A stretch of DNA of 64,000 nt. Origin: Lobosporangium transversale. Its lineage: Eukaryota. Position 1 is the stretch's first letter. Each line of letters begins with the position of its first letter. The stretch is taken from contig NW_019029005.1 in the NCBI RefSeq assembly GCF_002105155.1, positions 310,001-374,000 on the forward strand. The letters run 5' to 3'. A program made the translations under genes and the position numbers. Below, in pieces: positions 1-25,983 of the stretch. The notes beneath the pieces are model-generated. The model was given only the letters and a program-made list of their open reading frames with translations. It was not told the origin of the DNA and did not search any database.

Positions 1-2453
1 CTGAGTCTGATCGCGAACTCCAAAAAGAATACTTGCGAGAAAATTTTGAAAAAAGAGAGCGTTTGAGAGAAAAAGAGCGCGAAGCTAACGAGAGGCATAG
101 GCTGTGGAAAGATCCTCAAGGAAGGAAAATGTTACAATTTCGCGACCGTTTGGAAAGAGGGAAGAGGGAGCAATGGTTGCTAAGAAAAATAGAGCAAGAG
201 AGGAAAAAAGAAGAGGCGGAGAGAAGGAGAGTGTGGCGACGTGAACAGTGGGTGCAAGCCAAGCAAGAAGCCGCACACTCGAAGGCTATCGAAAGAGCTC
301 GCCGTCAAGAACGCCTACGGTTACAGGCTAGGTTTCAAAGGCTCGATGAACAAGGAAGAAGAGAACAGCGACGACGAGCGGCTTTCAACCGAGCAAGACG
401 TAGAGCACAAGAGCGAAACAAGATACGTGGACGCCATGAACTCGATGAACAAGCTCTCGATAGGAGGCTCAGGACGAAAGCGCAAGAAGAGATGGACTCC
501 TCAAGAACAAGGAATAATAAAATCCCAGAGGGTCATCATCGGTGGTTTGGCTCCTCTGAGTGCCTAGGTGTAGAGATCCCACAGGTTGACATGGACAATA
601 TACTGCGTCAAAGAGAGAAACTATCAACGATGAGTCAGCTAACACTTTACTCCGATGGGTCCCTTGAAGAGGCAGGAAGAAGGGCGGCGCGGATGGCTTT
701 CGGGTGGTGGCTCAGATAGGCCCAGAAAGCTTCTCAAATGTAGTTTCAGGTAGAGTCGATGGGTATGCTTCATCCACCAAGGCAGAGCTAGTAGGACTGT
801 ACGCAGCCATTCTAGTCAGTCCCCGTAACGTTCCAACGACTGTCTACATAGACAACATGGCGGTAGTGGTTCAGTTCAAGGACCTTGCTCAAAAGCGAGA
901 AGCAAGCACTGAACGGCAGCGATTGCGATCCAAGTACGCAGTGTGGTGGGCAGCCATTTCGAGAGCGCTCTTTAAGCAGGGCGGGAAGGTAACTGTGAAA
1001 TGGGTCAAGGGCCATGCTGGGAATAGAGGCAATATAAGGGCAGACCAAGCCGCCAAAGATGCTCATTTTAGCGAAATGTGGACAATCAAAGACTGGAACA
1101 CAACGATCTGCGCTGTCACGCTATTTTCGAGAACGAGGTGGTGGAGGATGATCTTAGACACCTGCTAAAACTCCAATCAGCAGTGAGAACACATTACTTG
1201 TGGGCGTCTCAGAACAGAGTCAGGAATTATATTGCAGACTGGCGAGAAGTAGAATGGAAAGCAAGCCTGCATATTCTTCACGATGGCAACACGCCTAGAG
1301 GCCTCTTCACCAGCCCAGCAGATTGTCACAAGAGAGCGCACAGAATAAAAAGGTCCATGGTATGCTTCCTACACTCACTTATATGAGGCAGTGGCGACCG
1401 GACCTGTATGAGACTGACATCTGCAGGATGTGTGAACAGGAGCAGGAGGACATAGAACACCTCTGGCGATGTCCCATGACACTGGACGAGCAATTGAAAG
1501 GTTGGAAGCAGGCCATAGAACTCATCACGAAGGATGGCAAAAGAGCATTAGTGAAGGAGAAGAAGCTCTGGGAAGACAAACAAGGGAAAACACAGGAGCC
1601 AAACCTGAATAAAGGAGGCCCTCGTTTACACCTGTAGCCGACAACGTGATTTGGGGCTCTTTGGAAGCGATGTTCAAGGGCGTCAGAGAGATTCGACATG
1701 CGAGCACTCTGTTTGGTGAGGAAGATGTGGATATGGGACGGAGGAACGAGGGTGAGATGCCCACTGGACTGTCCAAGACTTGTACCACGGTTTGGTGCCG
1801 AAGGAACTGATACAAAAATGGAAGACGATCTTCAGAACCACAGCATCGATCTCAAGGTACATTGTTTGCCGCTTTGTCAAGTCAATCGAGGAACTCGGCA
1901 GGACTGAAATCTGGAACAGACGCTGCAAAGTCACCGTCAACTGGGAAAGAGACAATGGTATCACCTCTGTGAGCAAACGCGCCAGGGGACGCAACTGTGT
2001 TGGGAGGCACAGACGTAGCAGAGGTGAATTCTTTGGCTCTCACCAGGGACAACGACGAACAGCAGATGTGAAGGCGATCAGGACTGAGGCAGACCGGCGA
2101 GTGGCGGCAAGCTACCGGCAGCAGGTGGAATTGGCGATTATGGAGCGCCTGGAAAGCTGTAAATTTTTGATGATTGAGGACAGCGGCTAAAGGATGACCT
2201 TCGCGCACAACAGGCCAAGTAGGGAGTAGAGCCGTGCCACAGGTCCTCTGGGACCAAGGAAGTCTACTCAATGCTGACGTGGTTTATGAACAGGATGTAG
2301 TACTGTGGCAGTATGACGATGCGGCTTCGGTCGATTATTGGATACCGCTTTATTTGCGACCCCAGTAATGGGGCAACCCATTTATAGAGCTAACATCTAA
2401 ATAAATCCTACATGACCTCGTGGGTCCTTGTTATCAAAAAAAAAAAAAAAAAA
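1..2453 (+). mobile_element. 3' part of a non-LTR (LINE-like) retrotransposon: charged region, RNase H, C-terminal Cys/His zinc knuckle, 3' UTR and poly(A)
   Basis: RNase H motifs LYSDGS, STKAELVGL, VYIDN, KWVKGHAGNRGNIRADQAAK; CRMCEQEQEDIEHLWRC zinc motif; EIWNRRC; stop at 2190; A-tract 2436-2453; several frameshifts. Confidence 0.9.
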
Positions 2454-15887: not shown

Positions 15888-16058
15888 GTTGCCACTAAGA
15901 TGAAGACCAGTTCAGCAATGTGTGTCCAATGTTTTTTAACAGGGTTTACGCGGTCGATCAAGATGAATGCTGCTCTGGTTCCGTGCGTGGTCCTGATGCT
16001 TGCTGTGCAAAAAGGTGGAGTGCAAGCAAAAATAGAGCTAAAGAGAATAAGGTCCTCT

Positions 16059-16094
<36 letters not shown>

Positions 16095-16261
16095 CCCGCT
16101 GGGGGCAGTGACCAGTGACGTGCTTCATTGCTTTTGACTCAAATCCCTTCCTCTATCTCTCCTATCAGCAAAAATGACATTCTCCTGGAACAAGGTTGCA
16201 TCAATGGTGTACAAACATTTTTATACATTTTTTATGTAGGATCACAACAATGAAAATAATT

Positions 16262-17350
16262 CTACGGCGCTGAGTTGCCAGAGATACCAGTCATGGTCAT
16301 GTCACCAGACGCATTTTCGTCTATCAATGGCGATCTGGGTAAGGTTACATTTGTCAGGCTGATAGATGTCGCGCCTGTTCCTGCGCCAGAGGAAGAAGAC
16401 CCTCCATTGGTATTCAATGAAGAAGGCCCTGCCCCTGCTGATGAAGAGGACCCAGCATGGCCACTACTGCTTCCAGAGATATTGTTCTCTGGTACTGCTC
16501 CCGCTGCTCCCGCTGCAGTAGCGTTTTCCACAAGTTGGACTTGGCCATCCATGACACGCTTAAATGTTTCCAAGACTTTTGTATTGTATCCTTTGCATTT
16601 ATCGCATTTGTGATACAGGAAATGGTATGGTGCCTCGGACTTAACCTCACAGTCGTTTACAGAGAACAACAGAAAAGATATTTGCATACTCTGGAGGCAT
16701 TGTCTGCTCTGCAAGTAGCGAGTCAATCTTTGAGTAGTATGCTGACATGTCGCCTAATGATTTCCAGCATGTAGGGCACTGGTACGAGATTTTGATGTAG
16801 TTCCTCATGACACTTCGAATGGATACAATGACCACATGCTAATAAAGCAAAATACGAGGATATAGAATATGTTTCATGATCTCAATCCATGCATGAGTAT
16901 CCAGCATTCAACTTGTCGTTAAAGTGATACGTACCATAAAAATAACTGTTGTCGTACTCGTGAACATGTAATTCGCCGCAGATTGGGCAATCACATTCTA
17001 AATTCCTCTCAATACACTTGTGATTGTTCTGGAGCTGAATATTCATACACACATTACACTTTTGGCAGTGAAAGTAATCTCGTCCAAGTCCTTGTCCTAT
17101 CCTGCAGATGCCACATCTTCACAGTGATAGATATTTTTCTTGATGTCATCATCCCAAAGCTACAAACATCGCAATAATAATTTGCTAGTTTAGTCTTGCA
17201 AGAACTACAGTTTTGCGCGGCTGCCTGAATTGTCTGGCAATGCATGCAAAGCATCATTTTCGTCTCGCTCCTAAAACCAATAATACATTCGATGAGTAAA
17301 GCAATAAGACACTGATGCAAGATGAATACAAAAGACCAAAAGGTGAAAGG

Positions 17351-17386
<36 letters not shown>

Positions 17387-18436
17387 GCAGAGACTAATTT
17401 AGCGCCATCTTACCTGACGATTGCGTGGTCACTGGCGTCATCGTGGCAAAACCTACAGTTGAACCATTTGCCACAACAGTTGGCCTTGAGTTTGCACCCT
17501 CGCATATAGTGTTTGCATCCCAACTGATTTAATTCTTCATTCTAGAGTAAAATTTAGTGTGACAGAAAGTTAGACTCGAAGTCTTCGAAACTTGATCACA
17601 AAGTCCACTGAATGGCAAGAGCACATACATAATATGTCTTTTTCAAATCGTCTGCCCCAGCCTCGCCGCTTTGATTGTCTGATGAGCGTTGCGAGTCATG
17701 CCACTTGGACGACATAAGTTTCTAAACAAAACACAAGGAAGCAAAGAGATATCAGACGATGGTGAAAGTAAGCATAATGAAACTGACAAAACAAAACAAA
17801 AACAAAAGAAAACAATATTGAACAACAGCGGCAAGATGTACATCTTGATATGCATAATATACCTGTATCATTCCAGCCTTGTCTGCAAATTTGATATTGG
17901 GATCTCTTTGGATATCCATGATCTTGCGCCTCAGCTCGTTCTGAGCTTTCTCATCCACAACTGGGACGGATACTGTCCTTCCTGATGTAGCAGCAACAGC
18001 AGCTGTAGGTCCTAATCTTAATTCGTTGCTCGATATATTCGTAGAATCCGAGCTACTTCCTGTTCGCAATACAGTAGCCGATTGTGAGTTTTCAGTGTCA
18101 TTTCTAGATGGGTGATCCTCATTGTTTGCACGGCCATTTAACATCCGCATCTACATCTTCCTCGTCTTCTTCCTCTTCTTCGTCTTCGTCTTCGTCTTCG
18201 TCTTCATCCTCATCCTCATCCACATCCATGTCATTTCCTAATTGATCAACTACCGTTTCATAGCGGTTTCCTGGATTTTCGCTAACAAGAGATTGTATAT
18301 TATGGTTTTGTGAGCCCATAGTTGTGGACTGGAGGTTTGTCTGATGATTGTGATCAGAGGAGCTGGTGGTACTATCCATTGCTTCAAAGTGGAGTGTATC
18401 AAGAGCGTCACTGTATATACTTGGAGTTCTGGACAT
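16262..18436 (-). CDS. RCHY1: CHY zinc finger / RING E3 ligase (Pirh2/RCHY1 family)
   Basis: GCKHYMRGCKLKANCCGKWFNCRFCHD, CMHCQTIQ..CSSC..YYCDVC, YQCPTCWKSLGDM, YHFLYHKCDKCKGYNT; acidic repeat in the N-terminus. Confidence 0.9.
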
Positions 18437-18768
18437 GACTAGACGCAATTTGTTTTGTAAATGAATGTGTATAAAGTGCAGTGAGTGAAGTGATTGTTAA
18501 GAAGGTGATGATGCAAAACTGACGACGTGAGTGGAGAGTTTATTGCAAACATGTCTGATAAGGGAAAAAAAAAAAAAAAAAAAAAAAAAAAGTCACGAAT
18601 GAACTGCAACCAAACGATTTTGCTTTATTCTCCAATTGTGAGGCCCACTATGTCTCCGTTCTTCCTTAGCACCCACCAATCCGTCTACATCTAGAAATCC
18701 TTCGAAAGAAAACCTCATAAGCCCCGAATTTGTGTGAAAGGCTATCCTGTCCACCGTGGGATCCATCT

Positions 18769-19075
18769 GCTATGACCTACATTCCCCGACCAAAAGGAAA
18801 GAGGTAATAGCGAGCAGAAAATGCAAGGCAGGTTTTTGAAAGATAAAATGATCGAAAGATAGGATTGAAATAAACAGAATAAAATAAAAGGAAAAGAAAA
18901 TGAAGCAATCCAAAATTGCAGTAGCGCAGTAATGCCTTGCGATATGTAGCTTCCCGACCAAAAGAAGACCACATATCATGACATTACTCTGTTGTCGAGA
19001 GAATAGTAGTCCAGCCGTTCGAAAGTATTGTTAGATTCAGTAGTTGCAGCTTCCCGACCAAAAGAAGAAGCACCT
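18769..19075 (-). promoter_or_regulatory. Three conserved RNA hairpins (core YUYCUUUUGGUCGGGRA) downstream of the CPS stop codon
   Basis: Copies at ~18769-18811, 18928-18988 and 19042-19074; compensatory stem change CUUCU/GGAAG vs UUCCU/GGGAA; G-U pairs favour minus-strand folding. Confidence 0.65.
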
Positions 19076-19249
19076 TAGGAAACCAACTTGTACTTCGAAT
19101 TAAAAAAAGGAGTGATGTTGATGCAATTAAAAAATAAAAAAGGAAAAAAAAAAAAATAGAAAAAGAAAAAGAAAAAAAAGAAAAAAAGAAAAATAAAAAA
19201 AATAAAATAAAAAAAAAAAAAAAAAGATGGCTAATAAATACATCCATCC

Positions 19250-21635
19250 TTAATAACGACCACCAACAAACTCGGCCCAGGATTTGACCTCAGGAGGAAT
19301 TTTGGATCCATCCTTGCTCTGTGCCAACGTTGCCTTACGCTCTGCACTTTTGTTAAGGGAATCAACAAACAGGACCCGCATTTCTCATCGTTGATAAGAG
19401 AGATTCCTGCATCTACACCAGCACGACGAATCATATACTCTTTATCCGCCACATTCTGGGCACGATTCCGTGCAAGTGAAATCACCATCTGAACGTTCTC
19501 CTTCGCCATAGTCTTATGCATCAATGGCAACGAATTAGGCGAATCAACTAACTTGCAGGAGACACCCGACGCGTCCAAGATCTCTGTGTGTGCTTAGACA
19601 TGGTTACGATGTTGACACCATATTTTTGAAGTCCTTGTCCGTTTTAGCCAAATCGCCCGAGGTAGTCAAGTCATCCGAGCTCAGCAAGACACTTGAATTG
19701 GGGGCAGGCAATTTGAAATTTTGTACACTCTGAATTGCAGCAAGGTAAGCCTCCTCCTTGTCACGTCCAAAGCAGGCTACCTCACCCGTTGACGCCATCT
19801 CAACTCCCAAGAATGGATCAGCACCACCAAGACGAGTCCAAGAGAATTGTGGGACCTTGACAGTTGGTAGTTGTAATCTTTAGCCATCAAGTCTTCAGGG
19901 CAGGTACATCTGTATCACAGAGGGCATGGGTGGCAGTGGTGATGAAATTGTGACCAAGAACTTTGGAGACAAAGGGAAAGATCGAGAAGCACGAATATTA
20001 CATTCAATAACCTTCAAAATGGGTTCCTGGTTGGCATTATCAGAAGTCGCAGGCTTGTGAATAATCTGCATATTGAAAGGGCCGGTGATTTGGAATGCTT
20101 TTGCAACCTGCTCTGCAATTGTCTTCAGTTTGTCCTTGGTTTCGTTCTTGAGGTCACGCGTGGGAAGAACCAATGTAGCATCCCCAGAGTGGACTCCGGC
20201 GTTCTCAACATGCTGAGAGATGGCGTGAACAAACAAGCTTTCCATTGTGGGCAACGGCATCGACGTCAATCTCTTGTGCCCCAGAAATAAACTTGGTGAT
20301 GACAACAGGGTGCAGAGGTGAAACTTCTGCAGCAAAAGTGAGACAGCGGTGCAAGGCTTCGGGAGTGTGGACAACGTTCATAGCGGCGCCAGAGAGGACA
20401 TAGGAAGGACGGATGAGTACAGGATAGCCGACCTGCTCCGCAAAAGTGGACGCTTGGTCTAGAGAAGTCAGCTCCTTCCACTCGGGCTGATCCACTCCAA
20501 TTGAATCGAGGATTTTGCTGAACTTGTAGCGATCCTCAGCGGCGTCAATCATAACAGGAGATGTACCCAGGACATTGGCGTTATTTTCGTGAAGGCGGAG
20601 GGCAATGTTCTGAGGAAGTTGCCCTCCAACGGAGACAACAACGCCTTGTGCCGACTCCTGCTCATAGATATCCATGACACGCTCGTAAGACAGCTCCTCA
20701 AAATAAAGGCGATCACATTCATCAAAATCGGTTGAAACTGTCTCAGGGTTGTAGTTGACCATAACAGTCTTCTTTCCAAGCTCGCGAAAGAGCGCGAATG
20801 CATGAAACGCCGCACCAATCAAACTCAACCGATGATCCGATTCTGTAGACACCAGAGCCCAAGACCATGGTGCCCTTATCATTGAATTCAACATCATGTG
20901 AAGAAGCGTTGTATGTGGTGTATAAATAGTTGGTATCGGCAGGGAATTCAGCGGCGAGTGTATCGATGCGTTTCACGAAAGGTGTAATGCCCATTTGTTT
21001 ACGAGCCTTGCGGATAGTGTCTTCTGTAGTCTTCTGTTGCAACAATCCTGCAATCTGAGCATCAGAGAAGCCTTTGCGCTTCGCCTCGTGCAGAAGCTCA
21101 AAGGGAAGGTTCTGAACATTGAACTTTCCAAGTTCTTTATGAACAGCTACAATGTTTGATAACTTGTGGAGGAACCACTTATCGATCTTGGTGATATTGT
21201 GGACTTGATCAACGGTGTAGCCCTTGTTTAACATAGCATCACCAACTGCGAAGAGGCGGCGATCAGTGGGGTTAGCCAAGACTTTATCGACATCTGGAAA
21301 TTCTAGAGCCTGGAATCCTTTGAACTGAGGGTCAACCTGACGAATTGCTTTTTGGAAAGACTCTTCAAACGTACGTCCGATAGCCATGACCTCGCCGACA
21401 GACTTCATAGACGAGCCAATTTCGCGAGAAACGTGCTGGAATTTTGCCAAGTCCCAGCGAGGGATCTTTGTAACAATATAATCCAAAGATGGTTCAAAGC
21501 AAGCAGTTGTAGTCTTAGTGACAGAATTACGAAGGTTGGGAAGTGTATGACCCAAAGCGATCTTGGCGGCGATGAACGCCAGAGGATATCCAGTTGCCTT
21601 GGATGCCAAAGCACTAATTTATAGAGTAGTTCAGT

Positions 21636-21666
<31 letters not shown>

Positions 21667-23216
21667 CGATAGATTCCAATTCTACAAGTGATGGCCTTAC
21701 CTTGAGCGACTGAGACGAGCATTGACCTCAATGACCTTGTACTCTAAGCTCTCAGGGTGTAGAGCATATTGGACGTTACATTCTCCAACCACCCCTAAAT
21801 GACGGATGATCTTGATGCAGCAGTACGCAACATATGATATTCCTCATCACTCAAAGTCTGGGACGGCGCAACGACAATCGAGTCTCCAGTGTGGGTGCCA
21901 AGGGGATCAAAGTTTTCCATGTTACAAACAGTGATACAGTTGTTTGCTGCATCACGCACTACCTCGTACTCTACTCCTTCCATCCCTTCATAGACTTTTC
22001 GACCAGAATCTGGGCTGAAAGAGTCAAGGACTTTGTTCCGAGAGAGCATAAGCTCGGCAGCATTGGCAGCAAAACCGGAGCCTAGACCTCCAAGAGAGAA
22101 TGCCGATCGAAGATGACAGGGTAAGCCGATCTCCTCGGCTGCAGCCAAAGCATCCTATTATATACAACTGCAACAGATTGGGGCGACAGGGATATCGATT
22201 TCTAAGTTGATTTGAAGTCGAGAGGGGGGGGGGGAGAAACAGATAAGAGGGTGTGACTATATCAGCTACAAACAGTATGTCCAAGAATTCAATATACTTT
22301 ACCATTCAGAGCCTTGGCAAAGAGGTCGCGATCTTCACTGACGAGCAGAGTGCGGATGGGAGTACCGAGTACCTTGACGTTCAAGCGGTCAAAGACGCCC
22401 ATCTTGTCGAGTTGGATACCACAATTGAGCGCTGTTTGTCCACCGAAGGTCAGAAGAATGCCATCAGGTCGCTCGGCTCGATGATGTACTCGATATATTC
22501 GGGAGTGACAGGTAAAAAGTAGACAGTATCTGCGAGGGCATGAGACGTCTGAATAGTGGCAATGTTAGGGTTGACAAGTACAGTTTGAATATTAGACTCT
22601 TTGAGGGCCTTAATTGCCTGGGAACCTAATCGAAAAAAAAGGTCGAAATGAAATCATGTCAGTTATTTAAGAGACGAAAGATCGTTCGCTGATCTTTTTT
22701 CTTTTTTACAAAGCCATCATGAGACTTTCATCTCTTACCTGAATAGTCAAACTCGCCAGCTTGTCCAATTGTCAGACCACCAGAGCCCACAACTAGGACC
22801 TTCTTGACCTCCACTAGAGGCACATCTGCTAGAATCGCTTCTGACACGAGCTTCTTGGTTGTAGTCTTATCAGCTACCGAACCAGAGCTTCGGTGTTCCT
22901 GATGGTTCTCACGGGTCATGGAGAACCATCGTGCTTGAGAACTAGCCATAGATTTGATACCGATCTGTTTGGAAATAGCGGTCTTGTGGACGCTTGATCG
23001 TAAGGATAAAAGTGGCATAGGGATGGAAGAGCGAAGGCTTCCATGTGCAGGGCTAGTCGCTTGATGGAACATAGCTTTCGTGGACAGAAGCGGGAGTGGA
23101 GAAGAATTAATGTTTTTTGAGGCGCGCTGAACCGAGATCAACGAATTGGAGAGGAGAGCAGAAGAGCCCTTGACGGAAACCGCCTTGGGAGCTTTGTTGT
23201 AGAGTTGCTTATACAT
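19250..23216 (-). CDS. CPA2: Carbamoyl-phosphate synthetase large chain, arginine-specific type with a mitochondrial-like presequence
   Basis: [96 protein letters not shown]; no glutaminase/ATCase domains; frameshift-corrected end [12 protein letters not shown]. Confidence 0.95.
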
Positions 23217-23234
23217 GATTGATGATTAATAGAA

Positions 23235-23315
23235 ATCCTTTTGGTCGCTTGGATGTAGGTTTTGCAAAGTGGAATGGTCCTTCTCGTAAAGATGATACTT
23301 GGTCGAATATCAATC
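23235..23315 (-). promoter_or_regulatory. Three GACCA-loop hairpins in the CPS 5' leader
   Basis: mRNA sense: UGAUAUU-CGACCA-AGUAUCA (23312-23293), GAA-GGACCA-UUC (23283-23272), AUCC-AAGCGACCAAAA-GGAU (23254-23235); candidate TATAAA at 23420-23415. Confidence 0.55.
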
Positions 23316-24045
23316 AGTACTGAAAGGCAGAGGTGGAAGCCGGTGAATGGAAGGTGGGGCGGTGAAGAAGAAAAAAAAAAAGAAAAAAAAGAAGAAAAGG
23401 GTGTGGTTGAGTGCTTTATATGAATCGTACATCAAGATCAAAGACTCACCAGATAAGATTTCGAGTCTATTAAGGGCCATTGGCACATAATGATCTGGAG
23501 TGAGTAATAAATTCAAAAAAAAAAAGAGCAGATCTTTCATTTTGAAAGTTGGTTGTTGTTAATGATATTAGACTGTAAGTAGAAGACATCTTCACCTGAC
23601 TTTTATGTATATCTATATTTTTATTTTTTTTTTTTTTATTTTTTTTTTTTGGCGGCAATTAGTCTTCGTCATCATTCATATCTGCAGGATGAATGACATG
23701 AAGCGTGCAAAAGTTGTCGCTCCTGCTGAACAAATCCTTTGGCATGGGGACATTTCAGCCATCCAATTGTTGTGGGATACAAGGACAGGCACAAGGTCAC
23801 AGGCCCTTTCTCTACAGACTAAAAAAAGCATGCTCACGGTAATACAAAAAAAACCCCAACTCTACTCCTCACTCCTACTTTAACTCTCGTACTTCCTTCT
23901 CTTGCTTCTGTTCGCTACTCTTCTCTACTCTCTTCTTCGTCACCGCTTTACTTTTTTTTTTTTTCTTTATTTTTTATTTTTTTTTTGGATCTTTTTTTTT
24001 GGCATCCCTTCTTCCAGTCCACTTCTCATTAATCTATTCCTTGCC

Positions 24046-25983
24046 ATGACTGATCTCAATAACACTAACGGTTCTCCTATTGATGGCGAAGACACTGAGG
24101 TTGTAGATGAGGGTAACCGTAGCATCCTCATGGACATCATCTCCCAGCTCAGCAAAGGCGGCGACCTTCATCGCGTTACTCTTCCAACCTTTGTTCTCGA
24201 ACCCGTAGCATGTTGGAACGTATTACCGATTTCATGTCCCACCCTGAACTCATCATCAAGTAAGCTCGGAAACATTTTACCACACAATTAGACTTTTTTT
24301 TATTCTTAATTTTATAATGCAATTCGCATGTTGATGGCAATTTGCTGCATATTTATTTCTTTACTTTTGGCAACTATGGATGTGGGATTGCATTATTATC
24401 CCAAGATATTGATAACTATGAAGCTTTTTGACAACATGCTTTTTTTCTTTTTGTCCCAATATCTTGGCCTCCCCCGCCCCTTTTTCTCTATTTTATTTTA
24501 TTTTAAGCAATTATGGTTGTACAGTTTACTTTGGATAGTGATTGCTTACTTTGTTCAATTTTTCCATTGCGACTCTAGAGCCAACCAACTTGAGGATCCT
24601 GTGGAGAGATTTGTATCCGTGACCGCTATTTCTTGTCAGGCTGGCACATTAAGCCCAAGGTAAGCTAGTGAAGTATTAGACAATCGCTTCAAGCGCGCAA
24701 AACGCAAGACATGGTGGTCTTTATAATTTTCTATTTTTTAGTTTAGTTTGTGTCTATCAAACATTCTCTAACTATTATTACTTCAATGTTTTTTTAGGGT
24801 GTGAAAAAGCCATATAACCCTATTCTAGGCGAACATTTCCGTGCAAAATGGGAATTCGCAGACGGTACAGAGGCATTTTATGTGGCAGAACAATTTCGCA
24901 TCATCCTCCTATTTCGGTTTACTACTATGCCAGCCCAGAGAATAATCTCAGGATTGTTGGTGATCTTTTGCCTAAATCCAAATTTCTTGGCAACAGCGCG
25001 GCAACGTTAATGCAGGGTGAGATTAATGTCTCATTTACGAACCGTCCTGGCGAGGAATACCTCATTACTATGCCAAATGTCTATGCTAGGGGTATTTTGT
25101 TTGGTACGATGTTGATGGAGTTAGGAGACGTTGCAACTGTAAAGTGTTCGAAATTAGATCTTATTTGCTCTCTTGAGTTTAAAGTGAAGGTACGCAGCTT
25201 AGTGTTTCATGATACTAATCGCTCCGAGATAACTAGAGAGGATAGCTTGGAACTTGTCGACTTAAAGGTCATATATCAATGTTTTTAGGGGTACTTCACG
25301 GGCTCTTACAATGGCATCTCAGGAAAAATCAAACGCATCTCCACAGGGGAGGTTCTTTATGAAATTTCTGGAAAGTGGTCCAACGAAATCTATATTTCTA
25401 AGAAGGTACAAGAATAAGAATGAAGCAAAGGATAAAAGTTTTTTTTTTTTTTTTTTTTTTTGCGGGCCTTTATAGATCTTTTATCGTACTAAGTTACTTT
25501 ATATGGCATAATAGGGCAACAATAAGGAGGTTTATTTTGATGTTAAGACAGCCAGAATCCATCCAAAGATCGTCGCGCCTGAAGATCAACAAGAGTGGAA
25601 CGAATCGCGTCGCCTTTGGAGCAAACTGACTGCAGCTCTAAAAGTTAATAACCAATCACTGGCAACAGAGGAGAAAAGCAAGGTCGAGGACGCCCAACGA
25701 CTCAAATCAAGGGAGCGCGAAGAGAAGGGAACCACGCATGTTTCCAGATATTTTGAGCCGAATGGTGACGGATTCGACCTTAGACTGAAAAAGTAAGTTC
25801 AAATTGAACTGGAGCTGTCATCCATTACACTCAGCGTCCAACGACAATACAGAGTGTTCGTATTCAACATGCCTTTTTTCTTCTGTTCTATCTATTATTA
25901 TTATTAGTATATCATCTGATCCGCAGGTGGCCAAGTCGCAGATTGAGAACTTTATTTTCAATACGCCTGCGCCTCCATCTTAA
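24046..25983 (+). CDS. Oxysterol-binding protein homolog (Osh6/7-like)
   Basis: GGDLHRVTLPTFVLEP, KKPYNPILGEHF, SHHPP, MPNVYARGILFG, ESRRLWS; several introns. Confidence 0.9.

Follow-up and report, generated by a model that had tools for sequence, protein, structure and literature searches.

Organization of the CPA2 locus

The window, that is, the whole stretch of 64,000 nucleotides analysed here, contains a hairpin-bearing region between two genes encoded on the minus strand, with CPA2 transcriptionally upstream and a zinc-finger gene downstream. CPA2 (19250..23216, minus) encodes the large subunit of an arginine-type carbamoyl-phosphate synthase (CPS) with an N-terminal extension; its ATG is at 23216, its TAA stop codon lies near 19250, and three introns are seen spliced. 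The closest protein relatives are all from Mortierellaceae and mostly labelled cpa2, the best being that of Lobosporangium transversale. The extension (22728-23216, minus) comprises ~130 residues, starts with MYKQLY, is common to the Mortierellaceae orthologs and is long for a mitochondrial targeting sequence. The downstream gene (16262..18436, minus) begins at 18436, and Pfam recognizes in its product a zinc ribbon alone (PF14599); following the original prediction, we take it to be RCHY1/Pirh2-like.

Contigs of sequencing run X5 skip seven introns with GT-AG ends in the region examined, and we therefore regard this run as RNA. A single X5 contig spans 18629-19124 and with it all three hairpin copies. 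The contigs of X1 and X3 (18600-19124) and of X5 (18629-19124) have 0 differing letters and 0 gaps relative to the assembly, so the three copies are not an assembly error. The coding regions beside the hairpins carry many indel errors in the assembly: comparison with four runs shows dozens of single-base indels within 16000-24200, by which the CPA2 and zinc-finger reading frames are broken; of the protein models, P0001 appears mis-modelled near such errors and P0002 appears intact. All four runs contain a further contig of higher depth that aligns at <90% to 20697-20771, 21713-21943 and 22499-22574; it probably represents the pyrimidine-pathway CPS paralog.

The first AATAAA/ATTAAA past the CPA2 stop codon, a candidate poly(A) signal (AAUAAA, 18624..18629, minus), falls beyond all the hairpins, as it does in the related contig L001 described below (position 2011). 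Because a contig of the spliced run covers the hairpins and the first AAUAAA lies beyond them, we placed the three copies in the CPA2 3′ UTR, on the minus strand, bearing in mind that contigs cannot prove strand or transcript ends. Contig depth (49 for the hairpin contig, 38 for CPA2 and at least 215 for the downstream gene) and adapter orientation are weak hints that fit this assignment. A long U-rich tract separates the CPA2 stop codon from the first hairpin in both species (19124-19235, minus; ~1610-1660 in L001).

Three hairpins with an invariant loop

The original prediction described three copies of a stem-loop with an invariant apex. The plus strand indeed carries exact matches to CCGACCAAAAG at 18786, 18954 and 19054, and the 12-mer CCCGACCAAAAG is common to the three copies, which are spaced by 168 and 100 nt. 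On the minus strand, hairpin 1 (proximal, 19030..19087) has the core CUUCUU-UUGGUC-GGGAAG at 19050-19067 above an interrupted lower stem. Hairpin 2 (middle, 18928..18988) has the same core at 18950-18967 on a long lower stem with a bulged U. Hairpin 3 (distal, 18762..18818), situated within a branched distal domain, has the core UUCCUU-UUGGUC-GGGGAA at 18782-18799, and thus the stem swap UUCCUU/GGGGAA ascribed to the distal copy.

Hairpin 2 folds on the minus strand as had been written out for the middle copy (18928-18988, −28.4 kcal/mol, z −5.65), and 0/200 shuffles were as good; the other two copies folded alone were weaker, with z −1.97 (6/200) and z −1.54 (17/200). In a fold of the whole UTR, the five core pairs of each hairpin reached probabilities of 0.78-0.99 (0.98-0.99 in hairpin 1) and the closing U.G pair 0.63-0.68. 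The invariant apex is refined to a predicted 6-nt loop, UUGGUC, closed by U.G, or to UUUGGUCG if this pair opens. With the core held fixed, the lower stem beat shuffled flanks in 970/1000 cases for hairpin 1 and 984/1000 for hairpin 3, and 0/1000 shuffled flanks were as good as the lower stem of hairpin 2.

Conservation of the hairpins in a related species

L001, a single metagenome contig, encodes the C-terminal portion of CPA2, and the zinc-finger gene follows downstream as in the window. Its coding identity to the window is 75% (1143/1522 aligned bases), and the two intergenic regions are not globally alignable. The L001 UTR contains exactly three copies in the same orientation as in the window (1717-1734, 1769-1786 and 1893-1910, the counterparts of hairpins 1, 2 and 3), and they are 52 and 124 nt apart, so the 100-nt spacing pointed out earlier is exact between two window copies but is not conserved. 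The lower stem of the middle L001 copy (1769-1786) is unrelated in sequence to that of hairpin 2, yet it pairs (z −4.43).

The block CUUUUGGUCG is invariant in 6/6 copies; so are the U two positions upstream of the block and, opposite the invariant C, its partner G. The original prediction was to be abandoned if the region was not transcribed or if a linear 11-mer was kept without pairing; the X5 contig covers the copies, and 36/36 core stem cells pair over the six copies, with double-sided changes in two of the six core pairs (C-G/U-A and U-A/C-G). This result was equalled by 12/500 shuffles, the shuffled mean being 93.8% since pyrimidine-rich and purine-rich arms pair readily, and slid-partner controls gave 56-72% pairing. 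The covariation rests on two species and six related copies, and relatedness inflates such counts; we therefore gave more weight to the lower stems. Out of 1000 shuffled flanks, 30, 0 and 16 produced equally good lower stems in the window and 77, 3 and 174 in L001, which corresponds to p values of 0.03, <0.001, 0.016, 0.077 and 0.003 in five copies and 0.17 in the sixth. The loop gives no covariation signal, since it never varies among the six copies.

Old, functionless local duplications, with the leader matches described below arising by chance, would account for window copies 1 and 2 being 96% alike over 24 nt and for the ready pairing of shuffled arms. However, the number, order and domain context of the copies have been kept across 25% coding divergence in a UTR that is otherwise unalignable. 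L001 largely refutes this explanation, which we consider extremely improbable: it retains three copies with stems that differ but still pair and with two-sided changes, in line with the earlier claim of selection on RNA structure rather than simple duplication.

U.G pairs make up 12/36 core cells and become mismatches when read on the plus strand, and the CPA2 sense strand folds better than the opposite strand in 6/6 copies. The hairpins are thus assigned to the CPA2 sense strand, minus in the window, and on folding grounds we reject the plus-strand decoy RNA that had been proposed.

The covariance-model search suggested with the original prediction, run with all six copies over 70,813 bases, yielded no seventh copy, the best other match scoring 11.4 bits against 32.6-37.5 for the copies themselves. 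Rfam 15 gave no gathering-score match in the window, and in the two UTRs only weak unrelated matches with E 0.6-4. Scans for orthologs recovered one CPA2 locus among 110 candidate stretches in metagenomes, 0/63 in prokaryote genomes and 0/73 in viral contigs.

A conserved helix enclosing the distal hairpin

Besides the hairpin family, the two intergenic regions share AAAACCTGCC and ATGAGGTTTTCT, which pair with each other to form a helix, P1. Outside the hairpin family, its two arms and one CTCCT-run word are the sole shared words of 10 or more letters other than T runs. The 5′ arm, beginning with AAAACCUGCC (18825..18836, minus), includes a 10-mer shared with L001 at 1837, and the 3′ arm, GGGC-UUAUG-AGGUUUUC (18708..18725, minus; bulge at 18716-18720), a 12-mer shared with L001 at 1972. 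In both species, P1 with its 5-nt bulge U(U/A)AUG encloses hairpin 3 and one variable hairpin (18732..18754, minus, in the window), which is predicted in the same place in each and would make the distal domain branched; the sequences of this second hairpin are unrelated between the two species. Its L001 counterpart (1918-1947) is a strong GC-rich hairpin (region z −4.38), and the first AAUAAA of L001 follows just beyond the distal domain. The conserved unit therefore consists, in this order, of hairpins 1 and 2, the branched domain that contains hairpin 3, and the candidate poly(A) signal.

P1 pair probabilities are mostly 0.8-0.98 in each species, and pairing holds in 25/26 cells, where one change affects a single side and another both sides; covariation computed from two sequences alone is non-significant (251/500). 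Pairing alone would not demand the degree of sequence conservation seen in the arms, which suggests that they form a binding site. Resemblances to k-turns, SECIS elements and T-box-like pairing with a tRNA 3′ end were considered and dropped; P1 has no tandem G.A partners. A conserved uORF at the P1 AUG was likewise rejected, the frame having 41 codons in the window versus 5 in L001.

P1 and the hairpin stems together weigh on another suggestion, namely that a transcription factor recognizes CGACCAA(AAG) in double-stranded DNA, with two occurrences close to the start of CPA2 and three upstream of the RCHY1-like gene. Such a site would explain both orientations at one locus without RNA pairing, and the 3′ copies are 350-630 nt upstream of the next start codon. 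But a DNA site in the RCHY1 promoter, as the original prediction had offered, does not explain the stems: they are unneeded for it, yet all 3′ copies (6/6) possess them, with double changes and U.G pairs that form on one strand only. Furthermore, the conserved P1 arms are complementary, all six copies share one orientation, and the distance to the downstream ATG differs between the species. We hold this explanation to be very unlikely.

Complements to the loops in the CPA2 leader

The original prediction had noted CGACCAAAA in the CPS leader. The match is present; whereas the original prediction drew a decoy parallel from it, we read the leader sequence as a putative pairing partner of the loops. 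Beyond that observation, as with P1, we located a second leader site. Site B, CGACCAAAAGGA (23236..23247, minus; −31 to −20 from the AUG), can pair with UYCUUUUGGUCG, the 12-nt consensus of the six copies, and so covers exactly the invariant block together with positions −1 (Y) and −2 (U), kept in 6/6 copies. It lies inside the RNA contig, which shows no differences there. Site A is a predicted hairpin, GAUAUU-CGACCA-AGUAUC (23294..23311, minus), whose loop is complementary to the 3′ loops, with CGACCAA at −89 to −83 from the CPA2 AUG. The RNA contig begins at 23282; site A is 12 nt upstream of this point and may fall outside the mRNA. A TATA-like word at 23414-23420 suggests that the transcript starts further upstream than the contig. 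The leader contains no upstream ATG within 204 nt.

Leader shuffles contained a 10-mer complement in 1/20000 cases and two CGACCAA in 2/20000. Against an empirical background of 141,626 bases, p for a 140-nt leader was ~0.001 for the 10-mer and ~0.007 (1 in 150) for the second CGACCAA, values that overstate the case, as the match was spotted post hoc and other nearby places would have been equally story-worthy. Among 1826 segments of 140 nt on both strands, only those of the leader and one copy's own antisense bind the 10-mer equally. Such words do arise in the background: one is found at L001 5749-5758, in a coding region and outside any hairpin.

Both leader sites are predicted to be accessible. 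The loop of site A has an unpaired probability of ~1.0 (hairpin z −2.04, 11/200 shuffles), and among nine CGACCAA sites outside the 3′ copies it alone is predicted as an exact 6-nt hairpin loop; site B is mostly unstructured in the prediction. Opening 7 nt would cost <1 kcal/mol at either site, and once opening costs are deducted, each of the six loops is predicted to bind with −5 to −8 kcal/mol, in nearest-neighbour energies that ignore loop-loop sterics. Hairpin 3 and the leader cofolded at −18 kcal/mol, with 0/100 shuffled leaders as good and complementarity extending further. Shuffled leaders were not beaten for hairpin 1 (26/100), hairpin 2 (8/100) or L001 copy L1 (31/100) in this simple cofolding, which cannot model loop-loop pairs.

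The stems vary asymmetrically. Of the five pairs nearest the loop, one alone varies on the 5′ side, from C to U, and either base can pair with the leader G; on the 3′ side, A and G replace each other at three positions. This asymmetry fits a second partner for the 5′ arm.

Just before site B, at 23253-23263 (minus), the P1 5′-arm word AAAACCU recurs (250/20000 shuffles), and ACCUACAU at the same place complements the 3′ flank of hairpin 3. A toehold switch in which leader AAAACCU-A-CAU invades P1 via the AUG bulge was rejected, the duplex being ordinary (−7.7 kcal/mol; 540/1000 shuffles, 784/1826 segments).

The leader complement is known in one species, as the L001 contig lacks the CPA2 5′ end. 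A scan for the leader motif followed by a CPA2 start returned 20 viral and 87 prokaryote stretches, the analysis covering 80 of the latter; we attribute these to chance since the CPA2 N-terminus matched 0/108 loci compared in tblastn. CPA2 gene calls with an N-terminal extension that might translate the leader were also sought; the four proteins recovered all start at MYKQ.

A candidate kissing interaction between the mRNA ends

On these data we lean towards a model in which the identical 3′ UTR loops kiss the complementary leader sequences of the same CPA2 mRNA and so join its two ends; because the leader is known in one species and its match was spotted post hoc, our confidence goes only slightly past even. 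UUGG at the loop start would act as a YUNR U-turn nucleating 5-7 pairs, UUGGUCG with CGACCAA, at site A or site B, and at site B the helix could lengthen to 12 pairs if the upper stem, weak and rich in U.G, gave way. Growth of this helix would account for a 5′ arm that stays fixed (U, Y, C, U, U) opposite a 3′ arm in which A and G replace each other. The three loops might provide avidity or engage both leader sites simultaneously. The branched distal domain, with P1 and its conserved bulge, would be the likely factor-binding part brought to the 5′ end, as in viral 3′ translation enhancers. The most probable role of the pairing would be to deliver this domain and bound factors to the start site and so to set CPA2 translation efficiency, with arginine or starvation as candidate signals. 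We favour enhancement or maintenance of translation, but the sign may be the opposite, as a duplex lying 20 nt ahead of the AUG might impede scanning.

The same complementarity would permit pairing in trans, either head-to-tail with the leader of another CPA2 mRNA or with a different RNA that contains CGACCAA, the small-subunit mRNA for example; messages gathered in this way could be localised or their products assembled co-translationally. Three loops and two leader sites allow for networks of this kind, but intramolecular pairing requires no extra assumption, and we consider trans pairing improbable.

Alternatively, an RNA-binding protein may recognize the UUGGUC loop together with the U.G-rich upper stem, use the hairpins as multivalent sites and thereby govern the stability, translation or mitochondrial transport of the CPA2 mRNA, the leader matches then being chance or secondary. 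Three copies per UTR with an invariant loop and variable lower stems and spacing have the look of repeated protein sites, and the invariant C-G and closing U.G pairs would suit protein readout. Iron-responsive elements (IREs) offer a precedent: the transferrin receptor 3′ UTR carries several of them, with the loop CAGUGH and a bulged C five pairs below, and they are not known to have a complementary partner in the leader. Like IREs, the CPA2 hairpins recur within the 3′ UTR of one metabolic mRNA and combine a 6-nt loop that does not vary with a short upper stem and an interrupted lower stem; unlike them, they have a loop other than CAGUGH, no conserved bulged C and no Rfam IRE match. The two complements in the leader of the same gene and the one-sided constraint on the stem are left unexplained by a protein site. 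The hairpins also resemble the Smaug/Vts1 element in lying in a 3′ UTR and having GG as the third and fourth bases of the loop, but the consensus CNGGN0-3 (PMC4053848) requires C first, whereas the CPA2 loop begins with U in 6/6 copies; Rfam yielded no match either. A protein site is the main rival to kissing, though we consider it rather unlikely.

Comparison with known long-range interactions

Kissing of the CPA2 mRNA ends would be a variant of known long-range kissing interactions. Most viral 3′ translation enhancers act through 5′-3′ kissing (PMC5712577), and in Pelargonium line pattern virus (PLPV) the end loops UUGGCG and CGCCAA must pair for translation, according to compensatory mutants (PMC4820102). 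As in these viral 3′ cap-independent enhancers (3′ CITEs), the CPA2 apical loops at the two RNA ends are complementary and 6 nt long, and placement of the 3′ loop within a branched domain has viral parallels (PMC5712577). Compared with UUGGCG/CGCCAA of PLPV (PMC4820102), the CPA2 pair UUGGUC(G)/CGACCA(A) has one extra pair inserted. The polarity is reversed, the UUGG loop being 3′ in CPA2 and 5′ in PLPV, and CPA2 has, unlike PLPV, three 3′ loops and two candidate 5′ sites.

A 3′ UTR hairpin loop complementary to unpaired 5′ sequence, as in a kissing 3′ CITE, is thus predicted in CPA2, with the 5′ side seen in one species. The YGCCA/UGGCR consensus of TED, PTE, ISS and kl-TSS is absent, the CPA2 3′ loops being UUGGUC and the leader partner GACCA. 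In contrast to the uncapped, non-polyadenylated viral RNAs, the CPA2 transcript is a cellular spliced mRNA from a nuclear gene, with AAUAAA as its candidate poly(A) signal. Viral 3′ CITEs bind eIF4F or ribosomal subunits and promote cap-independent translation; in CPA2 such an activity is hypothetical.

Among cellular transcripts, the p53 mRNA undergoes direct 5′-3′ UTR pairing, reportedly very uncommon among eukaryotes (PMC10158990). Like the interaction proposed for CPA2, it is a direct UTR-UTR contact in a cellular mRNA that begins at an unpaired region; unlike it, the p53 contact is one extended duplex from an 8-nt bulge, mammalian and chaperoned by nucleolin/RPL26 (PMC10158990). The YUNR motif in antisense recognition loops is said to speed loop-initiated pairing, and by the definition given there (PMC4485353) it is present as UUGG at the start of 6/6 CPA2 loops. 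The bacterial YUNR systems differ in using separate antisense RNAs with long perfect complementarity, and the U-turn in CPA2 is deduced from sequence.

A more far-reaching proposal, which we think unlikely in its full form, is a cellular counterpart of the viral 3′ enhancers. Here, three U-turn loops would clamp the CPA2 tail to two leader sites, and the branched distal domain (conserved AAAACCU/AGGUUUU helix, U(U/A)AUG bulge) would bind an initiation factor or act as a sensor for a metabolite of the pathway; translation of the committed enzyme of arginine synthesis would thus be switched under starvation with no uORF involved.

Significance

We are highly confident that the element is real and undescribed. 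Our literature search, which covered largely open-access papers, found no published description of a CPA2 hairpin element, and the main text of a fungal motif survey, as far as accessible, contains no mention of carbamoyl, Mortierella or kissing (PMC5640933). That survey gives the arg-2 uORF as the known translation-level control of arginine synthesis in fungi (PMC5640933), and a review of viral enhancers asks whether cellular mRNAs use 3′-CITE-like strategies under stress (PMC5712577). Pairing between 5′ and 3′ UTRs is well proven in RNA viruses and reportedly very uncommon in eukaryotic mRNAs (PMC10158990). If the kissing model is true, the question of cellular 3′ CITEs would become directly testable in a fungal biosynthetic mRNA with several loops, and RNA-level control of the large CPS subunit would stand beside the arg-2 uORF. 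Even if the hairpins are bound by a protein, they would constitute an undescribed, conserved structured element in early-diverging fungi, which are of industrial interest for lipid production.
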